From positions 2,700 to 66,699 of the forward strand of contig JBDGSN010000007.1 of NCBI GenBank assembly GCA_042217505.1: 64,000 nucleotides of DNA. The letters run 5' to 3'. The notes under the pieces are model-generated. The model was not told the origin of the DNA. It was given only the letters and a program-made list of their open reading frames with translations, and made no database searches. This stretch comes from Candidatus Nanohaloarchaea archaeon. GTDB lineage: Archaea; Nanohalarchaeota; Nanosalinia; Nanosalinales; Nanosalinaceae. A program made the position numbers and the translations under genes. Shown in pieces: positions 41,984-61,204 of the stretch (positions are counted from its first letter, which is position 1; the number at the start of each line of letters is the position of its first letter).

Positions 41984-43240
41984 CTAATCCTTCTCTTCCT
42001 TTTCCTTATCGCTCTCGGCCTTCTTCGCAGCCTTTTTCTCAAGGTTAGGCACCATTTCTTCCGTGTCCGCTGCCTTGGCGATGCTGGAGGTATCCATTTC
42101 TGGAGCCATCTTTTCTGCCTCCTGGCTTTCCTCTTTCATCTTCTGGATATCTCTACCGACTTCGGAGACGAACTCTCTTGTATCGTTCTTGAGTTCGTAG
42201 ACCTCCTTCTCGTTGACCTCGTCCATCTTCTTGTCCTTGACCTTCGATATCACGTCTTCCCACTTGTCGAACATCTCGATGTGGTGTTCGTCGACGTCAA
42301 GGTTCTCTGCAACTACATCAGGTAGATCCTCCCTTTCCTCTGGCGGCTCTATATCCTGGGCTCGTAGAGCAGCGACGTTGGCTTTGAGGAATTTCTTGTA
42401 GTCGTCCACTATCCCTTTTACCTTCTTCCTTGCTCCTAGCTGTGATACCAGCTGATGCATCCTCTTGACGAAATCATCGGCTTTCTCCAGGTGGTCCTCT
42501 ACCTCCTGACCGGTGACATCTTCAGGATGCTTCTCTCCTTTGTTACCGAAGTCATGAAGTTCTCTCGCTATCTCGATGTACTCTGGTTCAAGCATATCCT
42601 TCTCGACGAACATCTCTTCAAGGACATCTGCGGTCTTCTCCTTCGGTGGAGGATTTCGGCCTACAAGCATTATAGGTGCCTGGCCTGCGTTCGCCATGAC
42701 CTGCTCCAGCTTGTGAGGTATCGATGACCGGAGATTTTTCTCGGCCTTCTTGTATCCTGCTGCAGCGAGTTTAAGTCTTTTCTTCACAGACTCCCGTGTA
42801 GCTGAAATCTTTCCTCTCTGAAGCAGTCTTTTGGCTGGCATGAAGATACCGGTATCGTATACCGGTTCACCGTTTCTCACCGCTTCGATAGCTAGAGGTT
42901 CTCCTTTTCTAAGTGAGTCCCAGAACTCTGTCAGGAACGGGAAGTACTGTATAGTTATCCTGTCGTCGGTCTCTTTAGCGAGATCAGTAACCTTTTTCCT
43001 GATCTTCTGCCTTGCATCCTTTGGAACATCGTTCTGCAGCTTTGTGTCGTCCAGGATCACAAGTGTATCTATATCGCTTTCATAACCGTGCTCTCCTTTC
43101 GAGACACTTCCCCAGACAGCGACTACTTTTACCTTGTCGCCGAGCTTATCCTTCAGCTTTTCGGCGAACTCTTCTGCTGCCTGCATCCTTCTTTCCTTTG
43201 ATTTCTCCCGCATTTCTTTCATCTTGTCTTTGGAGCTCAT
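41984..43240 (-). CDS. Pol-beta-type nucleotidyltransferase fused to a helical (HEPN/KNTase-C-like) domain and a long charged tail
   Basis: NTase motif VAVWGSVSKGEHGYESDIDTLVILDD, then GEPLAIEAVRNGEPVYD, a helical domain, and an E/K-rich C-terminal stretch of about 130 aa. ATG at 43240 is preferred over the TTG at 43270. Confidence 0.7.
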   Translation of the reverse strand: MSSKDKMKEMREKSKERRMQAAEEFAEKLKDKLGDKVKVVAVWGSVSKGEHGYESDIDTLVILDDTKLQNDVPKDARQKIRKKVTDLAKETDDRITIQYFPFLTEFWDSLRKGEPLAIEAVRNGEPVYDTGIFMPAKRLLQRGKISATRESVKKRLKLAAAGYKKAEKNLRSSIPHKLEQVMANAGQAPIMLVGRNPPPKEKTADVLEEMFVEKDMLEPEYIEIARELHDFGNKGEKHPEDVTGQEVEDHLEKADDFVKRMHQLVSQLGARKKVKGIVDDYKKFLKANVAALRAQDIEPPEEREDLPDVVAENLDVDEHHIEMFDKWEDVISKVKDKKMDEVNEKEVYELKNDTREFVSEVGRDIQKMKEESQEAEKMAPEMDTSSIAKAADTEEMVPNLEKKAAKKAESDKEKEEKD

Positions 43241-43303
43241 AGGATCACAGTTAAGGTTCTCGGTGTTCAACCTTAAAAGCTTTCAAAGTCAATTTGTTAC
43301 CTT

Positions 43304-43732
43304 ATGGTGAATGAAGAGCTTGTCGGTAGGTCAGTTAACTCCCAGGAATATTTTTCCAGTGATGACTACAGGAGCATAGGCGAGGATTTCCTGACATATG
43401 AGTGGGAAAACCCTGTACTTGTGCTTCACGGAGACGGAAACCTGGATGCAAAAGCAGAGGTAGGTGACTCAGTTATGAGTTACCTGAAGGAAGCTGATGC
43501 ATTAGTAAGCAGAGATTATGCCGGTCTGCTCGATGAAAACGAGCTTTCCGAAAGAAACTGGAACGTGCTACGAAGACCTGGACTGTCCAGAGAGTCGATC
43601 GATTCTATCGACCAGGTGGATATAAAGAATACTATGATACACGTGGTCGATGAAGAACAGGTAGACGAACTTGAATCATACATCGAACCGATACCACAGG
43701 ACTATGCTATACTTGGAGTGCCGGAGAGCTAG
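43304..43732 (+). CDS. hypothetical acidic protein (142 aa)
   Basis: Clean ORF with TATA-like CCTTAAAAGC about 25 nt upstream. Its stop overlaps the stop of the 868-aa ORF inside CTAG. Confidence 0.45.
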   Translation: MVNEELVGRSVNSQEYFSSDDYRSIGEDFLTYEWENPVLVLHGDGNLDAKAEVGDSVMSYLKEADALVSRDYAGLLDENELSERNWNVLRRPGLSRESIDSIDQVDIKNTMIHVVDEEQVDELESYIEPIPQDYAILGVPES

Positions 43733-46335
43733 CGGTACTGTTCTTCCTGCCATTCCTGAGGTCTTTTACCGCCCTCTTCCATCGCTGCTCTACCTGAGTA
43801 GGTGTAGTCGAAATCCTCTGCCTCAAGAAGACCTTTCAGTGGGTCGAAGGCATGCTCCTCTATCTTCGCCCATTCACGGTTGTAGTTAGGCTTGTCAAGC
43901 CCGAAGAACCTCGCTACTAAGGCCTGTTTCTCGTTCTCGTACTTCTCTCCAGGATTGATCTCGGAAAGTATCTCGTCCAGATCCTGGGGTCTTATCCCAA
44001 GTTCTATCATGTTCAGCGCAACTCTTATGGTGTACATCTCCTCATGGTACTCTCCTCCTACCTCGAACATGACGATGCCAGGATCACTTGGATCCCTCGT
44101 GAAACCTGCCTCGACTAAAGTGTAAAGCCAGCGGTAAAGAGTCTTGTCACCTCTTGAGAAAGGTCCGTGTCTATGTCCCTGGGACTGCTCCCATCCCGGT
44201 TTGGTGAGGTGGTAGGTCTTCACTATGTGGGAGAGCGGCTTGTTCTTTTTGATCCCGAGTTCGTCTCCATGATCGTCTACGAGCTTCTTCTCCTGGTCGA
44301 TAAGATGGTTTATCTCGTTTACAGGGTCTACGCCGTAACTGGAGGTGTGCTCCATATCTATTGTGAACTTCACCATAGTGTTTTCGTAACCATCTCCAAG
44401 CTGTTTTTTCGCAGTCATATCGATGGCGTGACAGAGTATCGCTATATCCTTCGGTCGCCAGACCCGTCTTAACTCGCCTGGACTGCCGTACATAGCTTCG
44501 ATGTTTACTTTCAGACCGAACTCGTTCATCCACTGGATCCAGGTCCGGCTCACCGATTCCTTCCCTTCCAGATGTTCGGGGACGAAACCTTTTCTATCGT
44601 TGAAAGCCTCAACGTTGAAGTTACCAGGGTTCTGGGTGAAATGACCCCATATGTAGCACGCACCTACCGCTGCGATGACATCGAGCTGGTTCTCACGGTC
44701 CTCCTGGATGAAATTGTTGAACTCATCGTAATCTCTGAAGTCGCTTCTACCCACTATCTGATTCCATATGAACTGTGGTGCTTTGAAACCCTGTTCTTCA
44801 GCAGCCATCATCCATGCCGGCATTATATGGAAAAAGATCGAGGATTCCTTGTTGAACTCATCTGACAGTCTTCCCTCGGATAACTGCTGCAGTATACTTA
44901 CGTAGGATGGCGGCATATCATCCCGGTTTCTCATTCTCTCATCGGCGTAATCTCCTGAACCAGAGAAAGCGTTCGGAGCTGCTTCGTCTATTATGGCTGG
45001 ATCGCTCTCCGCTTCCTCGAATATCTCGGATCTCTGTATATCCAGGTTCCTGGAGAGGGCGTTCACCTTTGCCTCGGAACTGGACTGCTCCCAGATTCTG
45101 TGAAGTATGTCTTCAACTCTATCCTGGATCTCCTCGAAACTATCCATTATTCTCTGCTTCAGCAAATCGTTCATCTGCCGTATCAACTGGTCTCCACCTC
45201 TGCTGGGTATCTCGAAGTTACCTTTCTCGAGGTCGTATATGTCCCGTGAGATCGATCTTGGGTTGTTAAGAAGTCTTCTACCGCCCGAGCTGAGATCCTG
45301 TAGATCGCTGAGTTTCTCGTACCGGAATGAATCTGAAAGAAAAATATCCTCTAAGGTCTCCTTCGCATTGCTTCTAAGGTCGCTGGCTGAATCATCTCCT
45401 TGTTTCTCTTCCGCCCTGGCCTCGAAATCAATATCATCTAGGAGAGATTCGATATCAGAGTCTTCTATCTTTATCGTGTTATCCAGATCAGCATCGTTTA
45501 TCATGTCGAGGAAAGTCCTGTCCAGTCCCTGGTCAACGCTTGAAACTGTCTGGACCACGCCCTCATAGTCTCTTATACTGGGTTCATATGCCTCGAATCT
45601 CTTCTTGGCAGCTTCTTCTTTAGCCTCTTTCCATGCCTCGTTGAACTCAGGCGATAGATCGGAGAACACATTTTCATAGAACTGCCATGGCCTGTCAACC
45701 TTCTCAAGGAACCAGAAGTAGAAAAGCTTTCTCAGGAACTTCGAGTTATCATATATATTGGTCTTTTTCCCGCTACTGTCGATATCAGTGATGAAGTAGC
45801 CGAAAGGGTCGACTGAGACATCGCTGGCAAGTCTTTCCTCCAGTGCGGGAATCATCTCGTTTGATGCGTGGACGTTGACGTAACCGACCTCAAAGCTGAG
45901 TTCGTCTTTCTCACGCCTTTCATCCACCTCGTACTTGAAAGCAGCCATCTGCTCCAGGTAACGTTTGAAGTACCTGTGGACGATATTGTATCCCGTTACT
46001 CTACCCCCTGTCGCATAGGCTGCGGTGAAACCGATATTCGGGTCGCCGTGGAGGGTCATGTCAAGGTCGAGTCGGTCGACAACGTTGATTATCTCAGGTC
46101 GATCGATCTGGAAGGTCGCTGGATTCGTTATCTGCACCTCCATGATGCTTCCACCGAGCTGTGCCATCCTACCGATCCTCTGGTCAAGAGGAGAGGGAAC
46201 ATTTCCGACATCCATCCCCGAGGTGTTTCCTACGATATAGGACATATCAGGGAAGCCGTCCTCATCGTATTTGTAGCCGTCTTCGCCACCGAAGTTCTCT
46301 TTCAACTTGTTGAGTATGTAGCTCGTGGTTTCCAT
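43729..46335 (-). CDS. 868-aa orphan protein; N- and C-terminal parts resemble a split metal-dependent TIM barrel (xylose isomerase / Endo IV-like) around a roughly 400-aa acidic insertion
   Basis: Long uninterrupted ORF with no P-loop, TM helix or signal peptide. Its motifs are DMTLHGDPN, VNVHASNE, FTIDMEHT, TYHLTKPGWEQSQGHRHGPFSRGD and VMFEVGGEY. These parallel VVLHPN, LCVENM, MCFDTGH, HLHLQDT..DLHLPIGSSEIDF and CMEIF of the canonical barrel at 60446-61204. Confidence 0.7.
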   Translation of the reverse strand: METTSYILNKLKENFGGEDGYKYDEDGFPDMSYIVGNTSGMDVGNVPSPLDQRIGRMAQLGGSIMEVQITNPATFQIDRPEIINVVDRLDLDMTLHGDPNIGFTAAYATGGRVTGYNIVHRYFKRYLEQMAAFKYEVDERREKDELSFEVGYVNVHASNEMIPALEERLASDVSVDPFGYFITDIDSSGKKTNIYDNSKFLRKLFYFWFLEKVDRPWQFYENVFSDLSPEFNEAWKEAKEEAAKKRFEAYEPSIRDYEGVVQTVSSVDQGLDRTFLDMINDADLDNTIKIEDSDIESLLDDIDFEARAEEKQGDDSASDLRSNAKETLEDIFLSDSFRYEKLSDLQDLSSGGRRLLNNPRSISRDIYDLEKGNFEIPSRGGDQLIRQMNDLLKQRIMDSFEEIQDRVEDILHRIWEQSSSEAKVNALSRNLDIQRSEIFEEAESDPAIIDEAAPNAFSGSGDYADERMRNRDDMPPSYVSILQQLSEGRLSDEFNKESSIFFHIMPAWMMAAEEQGFKAPQFIWNQIVGRSDFRDYDEFNNFIQEDRENQLDVIAAVGACYIWGHFTQNPGNFNVEAFNDRKGFVPEHLEGKESVSRTWIQWMNEFGLKVNIEAMYGSPGELRRVWRPKDIAILCHAIDMTAKKQLGDGYENTMVKFTIDMEHTSSYGVDPVNEINHLIDQEKKLVDDHGDELGIKKNKPLSHIVKTYHLTKPGWEQSQGHRHGPFSRGDKTLYRWLYTLVEAGFTRDPSDPGIVMFEVGGEYHEEMYTIRVALNMIELGIRPQDLDEILSEINPGEKYENEKQALVARFFGLDKPNYNREWAKIEEHAFDPLKGLLEAEDFDYTYSGRAAMEEGGKRPQEWQEEQYR

Positions 46336-46336
46336 C

Positions 46337-47968
46337 TTACTTCATAGTGTTCAGTCCAAGACCGATCTTCATATCAAAGTAATACTTGAACTTGAGATCG
46401 TTGTTAAGATCTTTCAGCAGACCGCCAACGTCTTCCATGTGGTACTGGTCGTACTGTCCTGTGAACTCTCTCAGGGTTTTCTCGAAACCATCATACTGAT
46501 CCTCTGTAGAACCTGAATCGCTGCTGAAGTCTACGTCAAGTATGTCTTTTAGAGCATCCATGACGTCTGAACCGTACTCTTCTTCGACCTCGTCAGGCGA
46601 GTCAAGACCGTCTTCCAGCCTTCTGATCGCTGAAGAAAACTCCACTGGCAGATCTTGATCGACATCATCGTGCTCTGATATCTTCTCCCTGAGCTCCCTG
46701 ACCGAGAGATCTTCTTCGTTCCGGGCCTTCCTGATCTTGGAGCCTGTTTCAGTGTCGAAATCTCCTGTATAATCATCGATCAGCTGCTGTAGCCTGTGAC
46801 TGCTGCGCTCTATCTTGTCCTTGAATATATTGTTGAAAACATGACGACATACGATAGCCGGGAAGATGAATGCGACCCCCACAGTCGGTCCTTCTGTGGA
46901 ACTGGTAGGGTTGCCTGCTCCTGCTATGTTGACATGCACGGCGTGTATATAGACGACTTTGAAATGCGTGGCTTCATCGTCACCTACCTCTTCGAGATCT
47001 CCGTGGTGCTTGGCAAAGCCCTGGTGTGCGATGAACTCGAACTCCTTTTTCTGGCTGGAATGCCCCTTGAAAGTCCAGTAGTTGGTCATATCCGAGTCAT
47101 CACGTGAGTGGTCGTGTATCATCAGCAGATCTCTTGCATAAGGTTCAAGCCAGTCCTCTGTCTCCTCTATAGATCGTTCTATGCTTCTTAACTGTGATTT
47201 CAGATCATTGAGCTTCCTCTGGATCTCGCTTCCGTAAAGATCCTTCCATTTCTCGTACATCGTGTACTTCTTCTTCAGTATAGCTTTCTCATTCGCCGGT
47301 AGCTCAGAAAGGCTTCCATCTTCTTCCAGGTCCTCAAGACCGCTCATCTCGTTGAAGTCTGCTACTATGGAGGGGTAGAAGTTGTTATCCCTGTAAAACT
47401 TTAGTGAGGCCTCATCTCCTCCCTGGCCTGAAGCACCTGCTCCATCCACAAGTTCGATGAAGTCGCCTTTGATACGATCCTCTTTACCCTGTCTGATAGC
47501 TTCTGCTCTCGATCTAAGCTTCCTTATATCGTGCTCCAGCATATGCTTCTGTTTCTTCAGCTGGGACAGGTTCTGCATAGTGTTCTTTATGTTCTGCTCT
47601 GCCTGCTGCTTTCTCTGCATGAATTCGGCGTGGAGGTTGGATTGCGGTGAGACGAATATACGGTCCATCGTCTTGTTGACGGTCCATCCCCAGGAATCGT
47701 CGAACCTGTCAGCAGCATCAAGTATGAACATGTGCGGCAGGCCCTGTGACCCAGCTGCTACCTCAAGATGCTTGAACGGGTGACCCATTATAGGTCTTAA
47801 AAGGTCTGTGTCGGTCGTATTCTCCAGGTCTTCGACACTTGTTATCTCTTCCTCCAGTATCGCATCTCGAAGATCTCCGCCGGGCGCTCCCGTACCATCT
47901 CTGTCGAATACCTCGAAGATGTGGCCGAACTTGCAGGTGTCTCCGTCTTCTGGACCGTGTGAACTCAC
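46337..47968 (-). CDS. 543-aa orphan protein with two coiled-coil segments and a beta-rich C-terminal region
   Basis: GTG start about 30 nt after a TATA-like box. Its stop TAA is 1 nt before the ATG of the 868-aa ORF. Coiled coils: AEFMQRKQQAEQNIKNTMQNLSQLKKQKHMLEHDIRKLRSRAEAI and IQRKLNDLKSQLRSIERSIEETEDW. No family recognised. Confidence 0.7.
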   Translation of the reverse strand: MSSHGPEDGDTCKFGHIFEVFDRDGTGAPGGDLRDAILEEEITSVEDLENTTDTDLLRPIMGHPFKHLEVAAGSQGLPHMFILDAADRFDDSWGWTVNKTMDRIFVSPQSNLHAEFMQRKQQAEQNIKNTMQNLSQLKKQKHMLEHDIRKLRSRAEAIRQGKEDRIKGDFIELVDGAGASGQGGDEASLKFYRDNNFYPSIVADFNEMSGLEDLEEDGSLSELPANEKAILKKKYTMYEKWKDLYGSEIQRKLNDLKSQLRSIERSIEETEDWLEPYARDLLMIHDHSRDDSDMTNYWTFKGHSSQKKEFEFIAHQGFAKHHGDLEEVGDDEATHFKVVYIHAVHVNIAGAGNPTSSTEGPTVGVAFIFPAIVCRHVFNNIFKDKIERSSHRLQQLIDDYTGDFDTETGSKIRKARNEEDLSVRELREKISEHDDVDQDLPVEFSSAIRRLEDGLDSPDEVEEEYGSDVMDALKDILDVDFSSDSGSTEDQYDGFEKTLREFTGQYDQYHMEDVGGLLKDLNNDLKFKYYFDMKIGLGLNTMK

Positions 47969-48047
47969 GATAAAGCATTGTCTTAACTTCTACTTAAAAT
48001 CTCGATTTTCCGTAACCTTAATCAACGAGTCCGGTGCAAAGTAAAGC

Positions 48048-48737
48048 ATGAGCGTCATTGATGACCTGAAAGAGACTTTTAACAGGTCTTCAAACAATTC
48101 CTCCGGCTCCAGTTCTAGCTTTGGAGGAGACGATGATTTTAAAGGCGGAGGCTTCGATGACTCCTTCTCAGATGGTGATTCCGGGGGCAGTTTCGACTCC
48201 GGTCCACCAGGACAGGGTTCACAGAGCAGTCCTGGACAGCCGCAGAAAGGTAATTCTCCAGGAGGGCCATCCCAGGGAGGCCAACCCTATAGAGGAGGGT
48301 CTCCGGGCAACCAGGGTTCGTCACAGAATTCTCAGAATATGAACCAGGGAGGTCCAGGTAACTCTATCGGACAGAACAGCGGTCAGAGACCCCAGAACCA
48401 GGGAAACCGTTCTCGGGGACAACAGATTCAGGGCCAGAATGATCCGGATCCAGCTCGATCCCATAACAGTGGATCCCAGAACTCGGGAGGAGGCGGCTTC
48501 AACGATTCGCCTAACGCACAGGCAGGACGTCCCAGCAGGGGAAGCGCTCAGCCACAGTTAAGCTCACGGACCGAGAAGAAGCTTGAAAACGCAGGTTTCA
48601 CCGGTAGAAGCAGCAACACAGACGGTAAAAGGAGAGGTGGGTCGATGGAGCAGGATATCCAGGAGCTGAGGCAGCAGAACGATCAGATAATCGATCTCCT
48701 TGAACAGATAGTTGACTCTCTTAACAATCAGCGTTGA
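48048..48737 (+). CDS. intrinsically disordered G/S/Q/N/P-rich protein with C-terminal coiled coil
   Basis: About 150 central residues are almost only G, S, Q, N, P and R (GPPGQGSQSSPGQPQKGNSPGGPSQGGQPYRGGSPGNQGSSQNSQNMNQGG...). The C-terminus is MEQDIQELRQQNDQIIDLLEQIVDSLNNQR. Confidence 0.65.
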   Translation: MSVIDDLKETFNRSSNNSSGSSSSFGGDDDFKGGGFDDSFSDGDSGGSFDSGPPGQGSQSSPGQPQKGNSPGGPSQGGQPYRGGSPGNQGSSQNSQNMNQGGPGNSIGQNSGQRPQNQGNRSRGQQIQGQNDPDPARSHNSGSQNSGGGGFNDSPNAQAGRPSRGSAQPQLSSRTEKKLENAGFTGRSSNTDGKRRGGSMEQDIQELRQQNDQIIDLLEQIVDSLNNQR

Positions 48738-49229: not shown

Positions 49230-49694
49230 TTAGTCCAGCTCGATGACGTTGTCAGCAGCGTTTTGAAGTGCTGTTGAGAACCCTGGATCCATGCCGATTA
49301 TGACTGTCTCCTTTCCATGCTCCTTGGCCTTCTGGATGACTGGCAGGAAGTCTGCGTCTCTTGTCACGAGAACTATGACATCTATGTTCTCGTTGTGGAC
49401 AGCCTCCATCGCATTGACTGCCATGTAGACATCGACGTCACTTTCCTTCTTCTTTTCGCCGCCCAGACCGAGAGCCGCCTCGAAACCCTGGGATACGATG
49501 GCCTCGATAAGTTTCTGGGACGCATACTGGTTCAGGAACACCTTGCCGACTTTTATACGGCCGAAATCCTGTATGTCTTCTCTTAGGGCGTCCAGATCAA
49601 GTTCGAACTCCTTTCTGATGACGTTCGGTCCGTCGACGAACACTGCGACGTTAGGTTCCTTGCTAACCTTGTCCTTGAATTTTTCTAGTACCAT
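49230..49694 (-). CDS. NYN/LabA-like domain protein (predicted RNase fold)
   Basis: [10 protein letters not shown]...[52 protein letters not shown] at 49694 or 49700. Confidence 0.75.
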
Positions 49695-49776
49695 GCACAT
49701 GATTTGAATCCAAGAATATAAAGACCTAATCACTCAGGAAGATAGACAGTTAAAGAGATATCTTTATCGCCGAGTA

Positions 49777-50538
49777 TCACAGGAAAAGCCGCTGAGCGTT
49801 CTTGGTTGTGGCCTCAACGACTTTTTCAACCTCCAGATCTTTGATCTCTCCGATCTTTTCCGCACTCTCCTTCACGTTCCCCGGCTCATTTCTCTCGCCC
49901 CGGTAGAGGAAAGGTGAGTCTGTCTCAAGTAGCATGTTTTCAACAGGGATCTGTTGAACGATATTATTTACACGTGTAGAGTAGAGAACCTGTGTCGTCA
50001 CACCTATCAGCATACCCTCTTCTACAGCCTCTTCAGCCAGTTCCGGTCTGCCGTTGAAACAGTGTAGCATGACTCCGGGTAGATCATACTCCTTCAGTAT
50101 CTTGAACGCCTTTCTCTCTGCATCACGTGAATGAACGACTACAGGTTTCCCAAGTTCCTCAGCTAGCTCAACCATCTCTCTGAACACTTCGGTCTGTCTT
50201 TCACGCATATCCTCATCTTCCACGTGGTGGTTGTCAAGCCCTATCTCTCCGACTGCGGCAGGGTCCTCTTTTCTGACCTGATCCTTGATCTTATCCAGGT
50301 CATCGAAATCATCTGTGTATGTGGGGTGGATACCAAGGTTAGGGATTATGAAGCCTCGGTGATTTTCTGCCAGTTCGAGTACTTCTTTATTGTTCTCGTA
50401 GCTGCTTCCTGCATCGACGATGAACTCCAGTTCATCTGCCGCTCTTTCTATTATCTCATCTCTATCATCATCGTACTGCCTGAAATCGACGTGGCAGTGG
50501 GCGTCAACGGGCTTCATAGAGAATCTTTTGGACATCAC
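49777..50538 (-). CDS. tatD: TatD-family metal-dependent hydrolase/DNase
   Basis: DAHCHVDF, GEIGLD, VVHSRDA, HCFNG, ETDSPF. Confidence 0.9.
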   Translation of the reverse strand: MMSKRFSMKPVDAHCHVDFRQYDDDRDEIIERAADELEFIVDAGSSYENNKEVLELAENHRGFIIPNLGIHPTYTDDFDDLDKIKDQVRKEDPAAVGEIGLDNHHVEDEDMRERQTEVFREMVELAEELGKPVVVHSRDAERKAFKILKEYDLPGVMLHCFNGRPELAEEAVEEGMLIGVTTQVLYSTRVNNIVQQIPVENMLLETDSPFLYRGERNEPGNVKESAEKIGEIKDLEVEKVVEATTKNAQRLFL

Positions 50539-57106: not shown

Positions 57107-59842
57107 TTACCTGATTCTGTAGCGCAGAATCGCAGCGATTCCTCCCATGTTAAGAAGTCTCTGACCTTCCTCGTGGTCGTCGGAAATGATCTCGACATCG
57201 CTGGACATCTCCTCTGCCTTCTCCGCCATCACATCGACTATATCCTGGAACTCCTCAAGGTCCATCTCCTCACCGCATTCATCACAGGTCTTCAAACCGG
57301 AGATCTCTGGATCTTCCTCGAAAACCTTTTTCTCATGGCCGTTCGGACATATATAAGTGGCTTCAAACATATCGTAGCTCTCCGAGATCAGTACTGTGTC
57401 AACAGCCCCCATCTCCATAGCTTTCAGAACATGCTCAAGACCGTACTCTGACTTCCCGTTCTCCTCCTTCAGGTTGGTGAAGAACTCGGTAACAAGGTTC
57501 TTTTCCCGCACTACCTGGGAATCCTCGATAGCGTCTTCCGCCTTCTGCACAAGCTCGCTTAAAGCATCCTCTCCCGAGTAGTTGGTAGATTCCCGAGCAA
57601 CGATCCTTTCCTTCAGTTCGTTGTGAAGATAGTTGTCATCGATAAGCTTGTCCTTCGTGAAACCTGGACCTCCAACGATTATACCGAGAAGCTTATCCTC
57701 CCTCGCTTTTTCAAGGAAAGCGGTCTTCGCCTTGTCCGCTATATCGGAAAGGAATGTTTCATACATCGATTTCCTGATTCGCTCGAATCTCTGGGCTGAG
57801 TTATGTACTATTAGTCCGTTAGCGACAAAGTTTTTGGCTTCTACAGAGATATCTATAGTCCTGTTCTCGCCAATTTCTTCTATCGAATCTATTTTCGCTG
57901 GAAGTATTTCCGGTTGAGATATTGCTTCTAAATCATTCTTGAGGTTTCCAGAGGAGTTTTGTACGAAGTTTTTGTTAAATGCTTTCTTACTTATCTCTCT
58001 ATCTCCCTGTAGATAGGTATTCGCAGATTTGAAGTCTTCCATAGTTCTCCCGTGCTCTTCCAACTTCTTTCTGACTTCAGGACCCTGAGTTAATATTTGC
58101 CGGTTATTGTTCCTTGAGTTTAGGTTCTGGACTATTTTTTCTAGTTCAACTGTTTTTCTTTCTGCGGTAAAGCCTATTTTCTCCGCAAATTTTTCAGCCG
58201 ATAGCTGGTCTGAGATACTGATTGTGTAGCGGAGATTGTCTGAGTAAGGATTTTTAGAGTTATCGTAAGTTCTTAGAGAAGAGATTACTCCATATCTCAT
58301 TAATTGCTGTTGAAGTTGCTGCATGAATTTCTTGTTATTTGCAGATATCCCTATTCTGCCTCTTGATTCAGAACAATATCCTTCAGCATCATAGAACCCT
58401 TTAATGAATCCTGAAACGATTTTATCGCCTGATATCATTATTTTTTCAGGTATCTCAGTGTTATGAGATTTCTTGATTTCAGGAAACTCTTTTTCAAATA
58501 GTTTTACTAGGGGTTTTCCAAATGCTCTTAGGTTGTAGTAATTCTTTTCTTCCCTGAATCTGATTGAGGTGTTGCAGCCAAACTTTTTCTCAAGTAATTC
58601 TCTATATTTTTCTGCTACTTCCTTGTCTTGTTCGTGGAAATTGAGCCTCTTCGGGTCAAAGCTTCCATCGCCAGCGAAGTATCCTATTATCTGGGCGAGC
58701 TCATGGTCTATTTCTGTTGGCAGACTGTAGTCTTTCCCTCTACAGTTTTCTCTTACAAAGCTTTCTCCAAGATCAAGCTCTTCAATTAGATCTTCTAAGA
58801 ACTTCCTTTTGATGTCTCGTTCTCCTTTCTCAATTTTTGATATTGCTGTCTGTGTTTTACCTAGTTTCTCTCCAAGTTCTTTCTGGCAAAGATCTTTTTC
58901 CTTTCTTGTCTCCTTGATTTTTTGTCTCCCTTTCTCAGAAATCTTGAATGAATTGTATAGCCTTTCTACATTTAGACTAGGTTTATGACGGCTTGTCTCG
59001 TATTTTTCAGGTAGCAGAAGCTTTTCTCCCTCTGTCAGATCTTCTACATTCCTTGTTTCAACGGTTTTATTGGTTACAAATACTTCATGGTCTCCGCTGG
59101 CTCTAATAGTCATTTTCGGATACTTGGTTTCAATCTTGTACAACTTCTTCTTGTTCTCCCATTTGTCGGTCACTTTGGAGTCTTTCATCCTCATAGAGTT
59201 GAAATCAGCGGATTTGACTCTATCGCCGACTTCTATATCTTGAATCTCTTTTACTTCTCCGTTGGATAGCTGTACAACTGTTTCTGGATGAAGACACTGT
59301 CCTCCGGCTCTTGTCTTCCCGGGAACGTTAGATTCAAGGGTGTAGGCAGTCTTTATACTGTTGCCTTGAAGATAACCTATCGCAGCATCTTGTTTATCTG
59401 CCACTATAAGACCGTAGACCCTGTCATCCACAATCATTTGCCGTAGAGGCTCTAAGACGAATTCTTTATCGCATCTGTAACGACGTGATTCGATTGGCTC
59501 CGGTGGTACGACCTCCCATATCTGGATGTCCGGCCGACCCTCTGTATCGGAAACATTGCCTGAGAAAAACACGACCCCGTTCTCAGGGGTCACAGGCTCT
59601 TCTTTGACTCTTCTACCTATCTTGTCAAGAGCTGCCTTGACATTCTTCCGGGTCTGCTTCGACTTGATGTTCTCCGCTTCGGAAGCTTCCGATGTTATGA
59701 ACTCCGAGATTTTTCCCATATCATAACCTGCCGGGATGTAAAGAGAGACCAGCTCAGTGTTCCGTCCGCGGATATCTTCAAGCTTCTTGATCAGCTTCTT
59801 CAGCTGGTACTTCGACATCTCTGAATGTTTTTCGTTGCTCAT
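57107..59842 (-). CDS. prf1: peptide chain release factor aRF1 interrupted by an intein
   Basis: NIKS motif (AENIKSKQ). GGQ motif split as KTRAGGQ / intein / SAQRFERIRK. The protein is 412 aa after removing 499 aa. Confidence 0.95.
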   Translation of the reverse strand: MSNEKHSEMSKYQLKKLIKKLEDIRGRNTELVSLYIPAGYDMGKISEFITSEASEAENIKSKQTRKNVKAALDKIGRRVKEEPVTPENGVVFFSGNVSDTEGRPDIQIWEVVPPEPIESRRYRCDKEFVLEPLRQMIVDDRVYGLIVADKQDAAIGYLQGNSIKTAYTLESNVPGKTRAGGQCLHPETVVQLSNGEVKEIQDIEVGDRVKSADFNSMRMKDSKVTDKWENKKKLYKIETKYPKMTIRASGDHEVFVTNKTVETRNVEDLTEGEKLLLPEKYETSRHKPSLNVERLYNSFKISEKGRQKIKETRKEKDLCQKELGEKLGKTQTAISKIEKGERDIKRKFLEDLIEELDLGESFVRENCRGKDYSLPTEIDHELAQIIGYFAGDGSFDPKRLNFHEQDKEVAEKYRELLEKKFGCNTSIRFREEKNYYNLRAFGKPLVKLFEKEFPEIKKSHNTEIPEKIMISGDKIVSGFIKGFYDAEGYCSESRGRIGISANNKKFMQQLQQQLMRYGVISSLRTYDNSKNPYSDNLRYTISISDQLSAEKFAEKIGFTAERKTVELEKIVQNLNSRNNNRQILTQGPEVRKKLEEHGRTMEDFKSANTYLQGDREISKKAFNKNFVQNSSGNLKNDLEAISQPEILPAKIDSIEEIGENRTIDISVEAKNFVANGLIVHNSAQRFERIRKSMYETFLSDIADKAKTAFLEKAREDKLLGIIVGGPGFTKDKLIDDNYLHNELKERIVARESTNYSGEDALSELVQKAEDAIEDSQVVREKNLVTEFFTNLKEENGKSEYGLEHVLKAMEMGAVDTVLISESYDMFEATYICPNGHEKKVFEEDPEISGLKTCDECGEEMDLEEFQDIVDVMAEKAEEMSSDVEIISDDHEEGQRLLNMGGIAAILRYRIR
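57800..59296 (-). mobile_element. 499-aa intein (Hint + HTH + LAGLIDADG homing endonuclease) in aRF1
   Basis: Starts CLHPETVVQL, has block B SGDHEVFV, an XRE-like HTH LCQKELGEKLGKTQTAISKIEKGERDI, and LAGLIDADG motifs IIGYFAGDGSF and FIKGFYDAEGY. It ends LIVHN followed by a +1 Ser. AT-rich: a hand count of 58441-58500 gives 17/60 GC, against 31/60 in the extein line 57241-57300. Confidence 0.9.
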
Positions 59843-60445: not shown

Positions 60446-61204
60446 TCACTGACCGAATTGTTCTTCGACCTTCCTCTTCGAAAGCAGTATGTAATCACGG
60501 CTCTCCGTGAATATCTCCATACATGCAGTACCCTCGAACTCTCCAAGTGCGTCTGAGACGCCTTCGAAATCGATCTCTGAGCTCCCGATCGGCAGGTGAA
60601 GGTCTTTGCCTTCACGGGTATCCTGAAGATGAAGGTGTGATATGTTGTGACCAAACTCTTTGAGGAAAAGCTCCATATCCTCCTTTCCCATACTGGAGAA
60701 GCCGTGTCCTGTATCGAAACACATCGAAATATTGAGTTCTTCAAGCATCTCCGCCAGTTCAAAGTTGTTGATGAAAGTCGGTACCGGATCAGGCATGTTC
60801 TCGACACACAGCTCGATATCTCTTTCATCGCAAGCTCTATCAAGATGGCTTAACTGCTTTTTCAAGTCCTCTGTCATATCAGTTTCTTCCCCGTAACGGA
60901 TGTTAGGGTGCAGAACAACTTTTTCGGCGTCGAACTCTACAGCTTTCTCCACTATACGGGTCAAATAATCTATCTCAGCCTGGTTGAACTCTTTTACCGT
61001 GGTGACGATCGGCTGTCTGAAAGGAAGATGTACTGTTACATCAAGATCCTTCTCCTCCAAGATCTTGTTGATAGCTTCGACATCGATCTCTCCGGGAGGG
61101 TTCTCCATCTCCCCCAGAGGGAACTCGATGAAGTCGAGCTCATCAGGTATCTCCTCGAAATCTTTTACTTCAAGACTTTTTCCGAGCGATCCACCGATCC
61201 TCAT
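60446..61204 (-). CDS. xylose isomerase-like TIM-barrel protein (sugar phosphate isomerase/epimerase family)
   Basis: VVLHPN, LCVENM, MCFDTGH, HLHLQDT...DLHLPIGSSEIDF, CMEIF. 4-nt overlap with the ValRS stop. Confidence 0.85.
   Translation of the reverse strand: MRIGGSLGKSLEVKDFEEIPDELDFIEFPLGEMENPPGEIDVEAINKILEEKDLDVTVHLPFRQPIVTTVKEFNQAEIDYLTRIVEKAVEFDAEKVVLHPNIRYGEETDMTEDLKKQLSHLDRACDERDIELCVENMPDPVPTFINNFELAEMLEELNISMCFDTGHGFSSMGKEDMELFLKEFGHNISHLHLQDTREGKDLHLPIGSSEIDFEGVSDALGEFEGTACMEIFTESRDYILLSKRKVEEQFGQ

Follow-up and report, generated by a model that had tools for sequence, protein, structure and literature searches.

In the 64,000-nucleotide stretch of contig JBDGSN010000007.1 from the metagenome-assembled genome of a Candidatus Nanohaloarchaea archaeon (hereafter the window), two adjacent genes on the minus strand encode a partner protein of 543 amino acids (aa) (46337 to 47968, an open reading frame [ORF] with a GTG start) and a barrel protein of 868 aa (43729 to 46335). 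The longer protein is shown to be a highly derived member of the endonuclease IV/xylose-isomerase-like TIM-barrel superfamily. Together with a nucleotidyltransferase gene that follows, the pair would form a housekeeping module of three genes, in the order partner, split barrel, and nucleotidyltransferase. The preferred interpretation, with a probability of roughly one half, is that of an endonuclease-IV-like metallo-phosphodiesterase complex that probably acts on nucleic acid and is encoded in this module. The identification of the barrel, an endonuclease-IV-like (β/α)8 metallo-enzyme with a helical insertion, is based on structure prediction with AlphaFold2 (AF2), Foldseek searches of the PDB, hhalign comparison with Escherichia coli endonuclease IV (Nfo), and hidden Markov model (HMM) searches. 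A preliminary description of this DNA had given the two ORFs and their one-nucleotide spacing exactly as they are found here and had proposed that the longer protein is an Endo IV-type barrel split by a giant insertion; the AF2 fold and the ligand register to Nfo support this proposal.

The AF2 model of the 868-aa protein, built with an alignment of 37 nanohaloarchaeal homologues aligned end to end, shows a predicted local distance difference test score (pLDDT) of 84.6 and a predicted template-modeling score (pTM) of 0.80. Its secondary structure follows the (β/α)8 order with a single insertion. The N-terminal barrel part (residues 1 to 197; 45745 to 46335, minus strand) is built from β1 to β4 at residues 33 to 38, 64 to 68, 92 to 96, and 150 to 156 and contributes the ligands H96 and H156. 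The C-terminal barrel part (residues 571 to 868; 43729 to 44625, minus strand) contains β5 to β8 at residues 610 to 613, 655 to 660, 705 to 710, and 753 to 757, followed by a helical C-terminal extension, and holds the ligands E613, D660, H663, H709, H721 (variable), H723, and E758. Between β4 and β5 lies the insertion of ∼370 aa (residues 198 to 570; 44626 to 45744, minus strand), which is all-helical in the model and contains 21 to 24% aspartate plus glutamate, in line with the acidic, helical stretch of ∼400 aa noted earlier in the middle of the protein. Residues 250 to 480 are the least conserved, with 21% identity compared to 53 to 65% for the barrel halves, and the flanks of the insertion hold the conserved aromatic residues W415, W508, W524, and W563. 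The insertion is found in all relatives with varying length. The C-terminal tail (EHAFDPLKGLL...EW..EEYR) is strongly conserved, also across phyla, and is partly of low confidence in the model.

Structural comparison places this fold among the TIM barrels, as had been expected for the two termini. In the Foldseek search of the PDB, xylose-isomerase-like barrels head the list and account for most of the top 50 matches, with probabilities of up to 1.00. The top matches are L-ribulose, D-tagatose, and D-psicose 3-epimerases, and the top 50 also include xylose isomerase and the apurinic/apyrimidinic (AP) endonuclease of African swine fever virus (ASFV) (6khy).

Nfo is a trinuclear-zinc AP endonuclease and 3′-repair diesterase of the PF01261 superfamily, and the C-terminal ends of the strands form the catalytic face of TIM barrels. 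The Nfo sequence from the annotated E. coli K-12 genome was aligned globally by hhalign with an insertion-deleted profile of both barrel subfamilies, the nanohaloarchaeal one and the more distant one. The alignment covers all 285 residues of Nfo with a score of 21.1, ∼8 standard deviations above the scores of 25 shuffled Nfo sequences (2.65 ± 2.26; maximum, 8.0). In this register, Nfo residues H69, H109, E145, D179, H182, H216, D229, H231, and E261 correspond to H96, H156, E613, D660, H663, H709, H721, H723, and E758 of the window protein, respectively. The metal-ligand roles of the Nfo residues have been described (bioRxiv 10.1101/2024.09.16.613364). Eight of the nine positions show the same residue type as Nfo and are invariant in all 37 nanohaloarchaeal sequences and in at least 26 of the 28 distant homologues, so that the proposed His/Glu/Asp ligands prove to be conserved. 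The equivalent of D229 is a histidine in 27 of the 37 Nanohaloarchaea, with Thr or Ser in the others, and in 17 of the 28 distant sequences; the non-His residues over both sets are Thr, Ser, Pro, or Gln. All ligands are located at or just past the C-terminal ends of the predicted strands. Each of the motifs listed in the preliminary description (DMTLHGDPN, VNVHASNE, FTIDMEHT, TYHLTKPG...GHRHGPFSRGD, and VMFEVGGEY) occurs in the 868-aa protein, and one ligand motif missing from that list, VNIEAMYG, bears E613. Local resemblance to Nfo extends along the barrel, with NFH of Nfo facing N[VF]H of the barrel family, IEN facing IE[AN], IDTCH facing ID[MF]EH, MHLND facing YHLTK, DRH facing HRH, and ILET facing MFEV. 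Judged by enzyme class, the barrel is very probably an endonuclease-IV-like metallo-phosphodiesterase.

The structural matches allow a different assignment, namely, a xylose-isomerase-like enzyme that isomerizes or epimerizes sugars or sugar phosphates and has acquired an insertion. The best Foldseek matches are the three 3-epimerases mentioned above and xylose isomerase, one relative bears the name sugar phosphate isomerase/epimerase (JGI/IMG), D-tagatose 3-epimerase is matched weakly at the profile level, and the E-D-H-E core of these enzymes, which forms a mono- or binuclear metal site, is present as E613, D660, H709, and E758. Unlike the ketose 3-epimerases and xylose isomerase (for example, PDB entries 3vyl, 2ou4, and 4xkm), however, the barrel shows the insertion and four more invariant histidines (H96, H156, H663, and H723), which match ligands specific to endonuclease IV. 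To our knowledge, these extra four ligands are not needed in mononuclear epimerases. The neighbors in the operon are a nucleotidyltransferase gene and a coiled-coil protein gene, without genes of sugar metabolism, and this assignment is regarded as improbable.

At the sequence level, the 868-aa protein stands apart from all curated models. TIGR00587, NF002196, and PF01261 give no match at an E value of ≤1 for this protein and none for its relative P0202, and the CbiR model NF041277 gives no match for the 868-aa protein in the NCBIfam scan. Relatives score 16 to 26 bits against PF01261, compared to a cutoff of 31.1 bits, and the subthreshold PF01261 matches in distant relatives fall on the N-terminal part of the profile in four cases and on the C-terminal part in one. 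An exhaustive HMM search for the barrel family results in 129 cluster representatives, many of which have 500 to 860 aa with the HMMER match confined to the C-terminal third; in profile-profile comparison, the distant relatives are homologous over their full length (E value of 2.4e-51; for P0271, 1.6e-54). The insertion-deleted profile shows weak matches to D-tagatose 3-epimerase, MJ1311, and the ASFV AP endonuclease in the PDB, in a list headed by spurious matches to pentatricopeptide repeats. Two database names attached to homologues call for comment. The UniRef name "Portal protein" of P0289 (WEL19683.1, from Candidatus Nanohalococcus occultus) is unsupported, because the window protein and P0202 have no PHROGs match, and looks like a misannotation. 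P0214 (QQG39307.1), from an Aenigmatarchaeota metagenome-assembled genome (MAG), is annotated as a glutaredoxin and carries a glutaredoxin-like N-terminal extension, which may reflect a redox link or an artifact of gene fusion.

Scans of both proteins against Pfam, NCBIfam, PDB sequences, PHROGs, and PADLOC yield nothing beyond coiled-coil noise, so that a direct assignment of the pair to a curated family was rejected, in agreement with the preliminary description, in which neither was recognized as a known family. The term orphan used for them holds with regard to curated libraries but not beyond, since both families are conserved across Nanohaloarchaeota and Aenigmatarchaeota. As also noted before, neither protein shows a P-loop, transmembrane segment, or signal peptide: a Walker A motif is missing, the N termini are not hydrophobic, and the hydrophobicity maxima (KD19) of 0.76 and 1.48 remain below transmembrane grade.

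The likeness to Nfo consists of the (β/α)8 barrel, the nine ligand positions in register, and the local motifs; the architecture is different. The compact single-domain arrangement of ∼280 to 300 aa typical of Nfo is not found in the window protein, which has 868 aa instead of 285 aa, the helical domain between β4 and β5, and an extra conserved C-terminal extension of ∼110 aa with the tail. In addition, the D229 equivalent is His or variable, and the gene shares an obligate operon with those of a coiled-coil protein and a nucleotidyltransferase. Because it fails the curated Nfo and PF01261 models and differs in architecture, the protein is not filed as a member of the Nfo family; it is a new, highly derived branch of the Nfo superfamily in an undescribed three-gene module. 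Neither the barrel family with its insertion nor the partner or the operon turned up as described in literature searches.

The AF2 model of the 543-aa partner is moderately confident (pLDDT of 77 and pTM of 0.60). The predicted layout starts with a small α/β N-terminal part, continues with long antiparallel helices (residues 111 to 159 and 225 to 283) flanking a conserved helical region, and ends in a β-sheet (residues 305 to 374) followed by a helical C-terminal part. A fold search against the PDB and BFVD gives no credible match. The search for homologues of the full-length partner yields 185 sequences, and every match named in its source is from Nanohaloarchaea. Alignment of 61 Aenigmatarchaeota partners by hmmalign defines a cross-phylum core at residues ∼90 to 285 (47114 to 47701, minus strand) with the invariant residues H146, D147, R149, F170, V174, D175, P199, D204, F205, L231, K234, W241, and P276. 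These residues, invariant across phyla, mark the core as a true domain rather than an unspecific coiled coil. A database search with the core finds members of Nanohaloarchaeota and Aenigmatarchaeota only, with no relatives elsewhere. Partners from nonhalophiles are basic, with a median isoelectric point of 8.55 overall and 9.2 for the core. A helix-turn-helix (HTH) or MBF1 domain, as implied by PGAP and IMG names, is not supported: HTH_31 matches 1 of 43 partner members (E value of 0.005), and the profile of residues 400 to 480, a region that cannot be aligned to the Aenigmatarchaeota partners, has its best match (E value of 0.31) at the N terminus of a transcriptional regulator.

The arrangement of a nuclease-like gene beside a gene for long antiparallel coiled coils resembles Mre11-Rad50 and SbcD-SbcC in organization only. 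Unlike Rad50 and SbcC, the partner has neither a Walker A/B ATPase head nor a zinc hook; the search for an SMC/Rad50-type head gives no Walker A and only low-probability coiled-coil matches, and the Foldseek similarity of the partner to SMC arms is not significant. The barrel, unlike Mre11 and SbcD, is a TIM barrel and not a calcineurin-like phosphoesterase. The long coiled-coil helices of the partner, the large helical insertion of the barrel, and weak coiled-coil matches of the SMC, PspA, and JetC types would also fit a structural scaffold or cytoskeleton-like assembly with an inactive barrel. Inactive homologues normally lose their ligands, and the invariance of eight metal ligands across the divergence of two phyla makes such a scaffold very improbable.

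The genes of the pair meet in a TAA-g-ATG junction (46333 to 46339), whose minus-strand sequence is ...aag TAA g ATG gaa, with the stop codon of the partner gene at 46339 to 46337, the spacer g at 46336, and the ATG of the barrel gene at 46335 to 46333. The spacer of 1 nucleotide implies cotranscription, and translation of the two genes is probably coupled. A TATA-like box, TTTTAAGT (47992 to 47999, minus strand), can be read from the sequence within the divergent intergenic region of 79 nucleotides, ∼28 nucleotides before the partner gene begins with its GTG, and this position suggests a leaderless or near-leaderless operon transcript. Proteins identical to the pair carry the locus tags ABEJ99_00760 and ABEJ99_00765.

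The pair stays adjacent in related genomes of both Nanohaloarchaeota and Aenigmatarchaeota. In N. constans (CP040089) and JALDAJ01, the partner gene is followed by the barrel gene and then by an NTP_transf_2 gene, with gaps of 8 and 4 nucleotides, respectively, between partner and barrel; in JALDAJ01, the nucleotidyltransferase gene directly follows the barrel gene. Scanning GTDB species genomes for the pattern of the distant barrel subfamily results in 74 loci. By the labels given in the source records, most of the named loci belong to Aenigmatarchaeota and a few to Nanoarchaeota or Micrarchaeota; many are unnamed archaeal MAGs. The partner HMM detects a homologue in 65 of these loci with E values of 1e-10 to 1e-31. 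It is located upstream on the same strand in 63 loci, mostly abutting the barrel gene and separated by up to ∼600 bp in a few, and ∼1.2 kb upstream on the opposite strand in 2 loci. In 7 loci, the upstream sequence is too short to judge, and the remaining 2 loci have upstream sequence with no partner match.

The unit consists of three genes rather than two, because a nucleotidyltransferase follows. In the window, the third gene (41984 to 43270, minus strand) encodes a Pol-β-type nucleotidyltransferase of 428 aa (PF01909; E value of 2.6e-9) with a HEPN-like helical C-terminal domain. In ∼45 of the 64 loci with enough sequence, clustering of neighboring ORFs reveals an orthologue that lies downstream of the barrel gene and shares its strand. 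The orthologues match PF01909 and, below threshold, the HEPN model PF05168 (17 to 19 bits, compared to a cutoff of 22). The motifs G54-S55, D66-x-D68, and D74-D75 are retained in every one of 38 orthologues, and the nucleotidyltransferase is apparently active. The Rx4H RNase motif of HEPN domains is not conserved: the window protein shows R181-x4-H186, yet position 186 is Glu in 92% of the orthologues. In at least 15 Aenigmatarchaeota loci (L003, L006, L016, L019, L030, L035, L038, L040, L042, L052, L053, L055, L057, L058, and L060), the nucleotidyltransferase gene is tandemly duplicated, with a copy of ∼290 to 330 aa followed by one of ∼370 to 410 aa; in L003, both copies contain PF01909. A convergent ORF for an acidic protein of 142 aa (43304 to 43732, plus strand) lies between the barrel and nucleotidyltransferase genes of the window and overlaps the barrel stop by 4 nucleotides; it shows no family match and does not resemble the gene of 200 aa that N. 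constans has in this place.

The module has housekeeping neighbors. In Nanohaloarchaea, it lies beside the A-type ATPase operon and genes for TatD and NYN proteins; in Aenigmatarchaeota, genes for ABCE1 and a cytidylate-kinase-like protein are nearby. Given the A-type ATPase and ABCE1 neighbors and the missing PHROGs and PADLOC matches for barrel and partner, a housekeeping rather than a mobile nature of the module is the best explanation. Makarova, Wolf, and Koonin (2019, PMC6393860) list the DPANN signature cls.004259 (NEQ050) as "MNT fused to HEPN, house-keeping context," with an unexplained role. The third gene of the module resembles this cluster in domain description and context, a comparison made by description only. 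The searched text of PMC6393860 links the NEQ050 gene to neither a TIM or endonuclease IV-like barrel nor a helical partner. MNT and HEPN domains usually occur in toxin-antitoxin systems (PMC6393860), and the nucleotidyltransferase domain matches PADLOC candidate families (PDC-S09 and oligonucleotide cyclase), so a toxin-antitoxin or antivirus defense system built on the MNT-HEPN protein, with the barrel as the effector, has to be considered. Against this stand the single copy of the module, its conserved housekeeping synteny in two phyla, the missing PADLOC or PHROGs matches of barrel and partner, and the unconserved Rx4H motif. Makarova et al. likewise call the conservation in DPANN atypical and housekeeping-like (PMC6393860), and a defense role appears hardly probable.

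In the mechanism favored here, the barrel would be an active metal-dependent phosphodiesterase working in a complex with the 543-aa partner, whose basic helical core might bind the substrate or the insertion or tail of the barrel. As with endonuclease IV, the most likely substrate would be the backbone of a nucleic acid or a 3′ end that is blocked, and the Pol-β-type nucleotidyltransferase could then act on the 3′-OH left by the barrel. Taken by itself, a nucleic acid complex of barrel and partner is a possibility that is still rather doubtful. A further reading, rather unlikely, is a hitherto unrecognized core nucleic acid machine specific to the Nanohaloarchaeota-Aenigmatarchaeota branch of DPANN, with a nuclease derived from endonuclease IV and bearing a clamp-like insertion, a coiled-coil subunit of a new family, and the MNT-HEPN nucleotidyltransferase of the DPANN signature. 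Such a machine would cut DNA or RNA ends, heal them, and lengthen them, for instance during repair or when nucleic acid derived from the host is salvaged.

Several observations weigh against an endonuclease-IV-like complex acting on nucleic acid. Foldseek gives no PDB match with an E value of ≤0.001 for the barrel model (best, 0.017), and its alignments are partial, with target-normalized TM-scores of ∼0.3, because the insertion breaks them. The top structural matches are sugar epimerases rather than nucleases, and the 868-aa protein has no significant sequence match to PF01261 or Nfo models. For Nfo, hhalign gives a probability of just 13%, and the relationship is therefore remote. Since the D229 equivalent varies, the third metal site may be incomplete. 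Profile searches demonstrate no DNA- or RNA-binding domain in the partner. Finally, a nucleic acid substrate is not implied by the metal site, because the small-molecule phosphodiesterase CbiR belongs to the same superfamily.

CbiR (NF041277), a cobamide-remodeling phosphodiesterase, illustrates that endonuclease IV-like metal sites can cleave phosphodiesters other than DNA (bioRxiv 10.1101/2020.09.02.280537). On this model, the module could serve the salvage of small molecules, cofactors, or lipids: the barrel would hydrolyze a phosphodiester in a metabolite derived from the host, for instance in a cofactor with a nucleotide loop, in the head group of a phospholipid, or in a nucleotide-sugar, and the nucleotidyltransferase would reactivate the product. 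This would suit symbionts without biosynthetic pathways. CbiR has the same conserved metal residues, the closest curated models of the nucleotidyltransferase are aminoglycoside (small-molecule) nucleotidyltransferases, the partner has no demonstrated nucleic-acid-binding domain, and the window itself encodes a CbiR-like barrel. However, the genes conserved beside the module include none for transporters, cofactors, or lipids, and a coiled-coil partner of 543 aa and an insertion of 370 aa are unusual for a metabolite enzyme. The 868-aa family differs from CbiR in size and operon, has no sequence match to it, and aligns to Nfo and not to the CbiR-like barrel of the window. Salvage of this kind is considered unlikely.

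The CbiR-like barrel is the 252-aa ORF at 60446 to 61204 (minus strand), which is a canonical PF01261 barrel (E value of 5e-29), as the preliminary description had stated. Its proposed use as a direct comparator for the motifs of the 868-aa family fails, because no meaningful alignment between the two exists, and the candidate was rejected as a close relative. The best match is CbiR NF041277 (E value of 1e-28; 100.4 bits, compared to a cutoff of 105), with weaker matches to deoxyribonuclease IV. A cobamide salvage enzyme in a nanohaloarchaeon would be of interest in itself.

Unannotated genes make up most of the tiny genomes of DPANN archaea. The preferred interpretation of the pair as an endonuclease-IV-like complex turns two hypothetical proteins into a predicted endonuclease IV-type metallo-phosphodiesterase with named ligand residues and its partner. 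Since almost all members sampled from two phyla have kept the module, it is likely important to their biology, and it is tied by description to an MNT-HEPN gene flagged as an unexplained DPANN signature by Makarova et al. If the core machine proposed above were true, this signature gene would gain its first functional context. The domain of ∼370 aa inside a TIM barrel that no curated model recognizes is an interesting elaboration of an enzyme. Found in Nanohaloarchaeota and Aenigmatarchaeota alone, the gene cluster is a rare genomic character and a possible phylogenetic marker, and its distribution bears on the disputed placement of Nanohaloarchaeota.

The surroundings of the module show further recurrent genes. 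The block around the pair, previously described as otherwise uncharacterized, contains GDSL lipase, NTP_transf_2, and NYN domains recognizable with Pfam. Directly upstream of the module, the window (49230 to 50538, minus strand) and JALDAJ01 (locus L002, 3571 to 4835) have genes for a TatD-family DNase and an NYN-domain (RNase-like) protein, a local concentration of nuclease genes; in N. constans, these genes are not beside it. In Aenigmatarchaeota, ABCE1, with a 4Fe-4S domain and two ABC domains, recurs upstream in 23 loci (L007, L014, L018, L023, L025, L026, L032, and L044 to L046, among others), ∼3 to 4 kb from the barrel gene. Just upstream of the partner gene, 21 loci encode a protein family of 105 to 340 aa (mostly 105 to 210 aa), for which two members tested have no Pfam match. 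The divergent neighbor of the partner gene in the window (48048 to 48737, plus strand) encodes the protein of 229 aa noted earlier as prion-like and disordered, with 18% G, 17% S, 13% Q, and 10% N. These four residues make up 58% of the protein, which has a short coiled coil at its C terminus; Pfam and PHROGs scans give no family match for it. The same divergent position is occupied by a 230-aa gene in JALDAJ01 (L002) and by a 156-aa coiled-coil gene in N. constans (L001).

For the whole 64 kb, no tRNA genes and no Rfam families at the gathering threshold are detected. A scan for bacterial promoters and terminators stays at chance level, with models that are bacterial and irrelevant for an archaeon. 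Elsewhere in the window, an ORF of 911 aa (57107 to 59842, minus strand) encodes the archaeal release factor aRF1 (eRF1 domains 1 to 3) with an intein, which bears a LAGLIDADG homing endonuclease and an HTH_3 domain.

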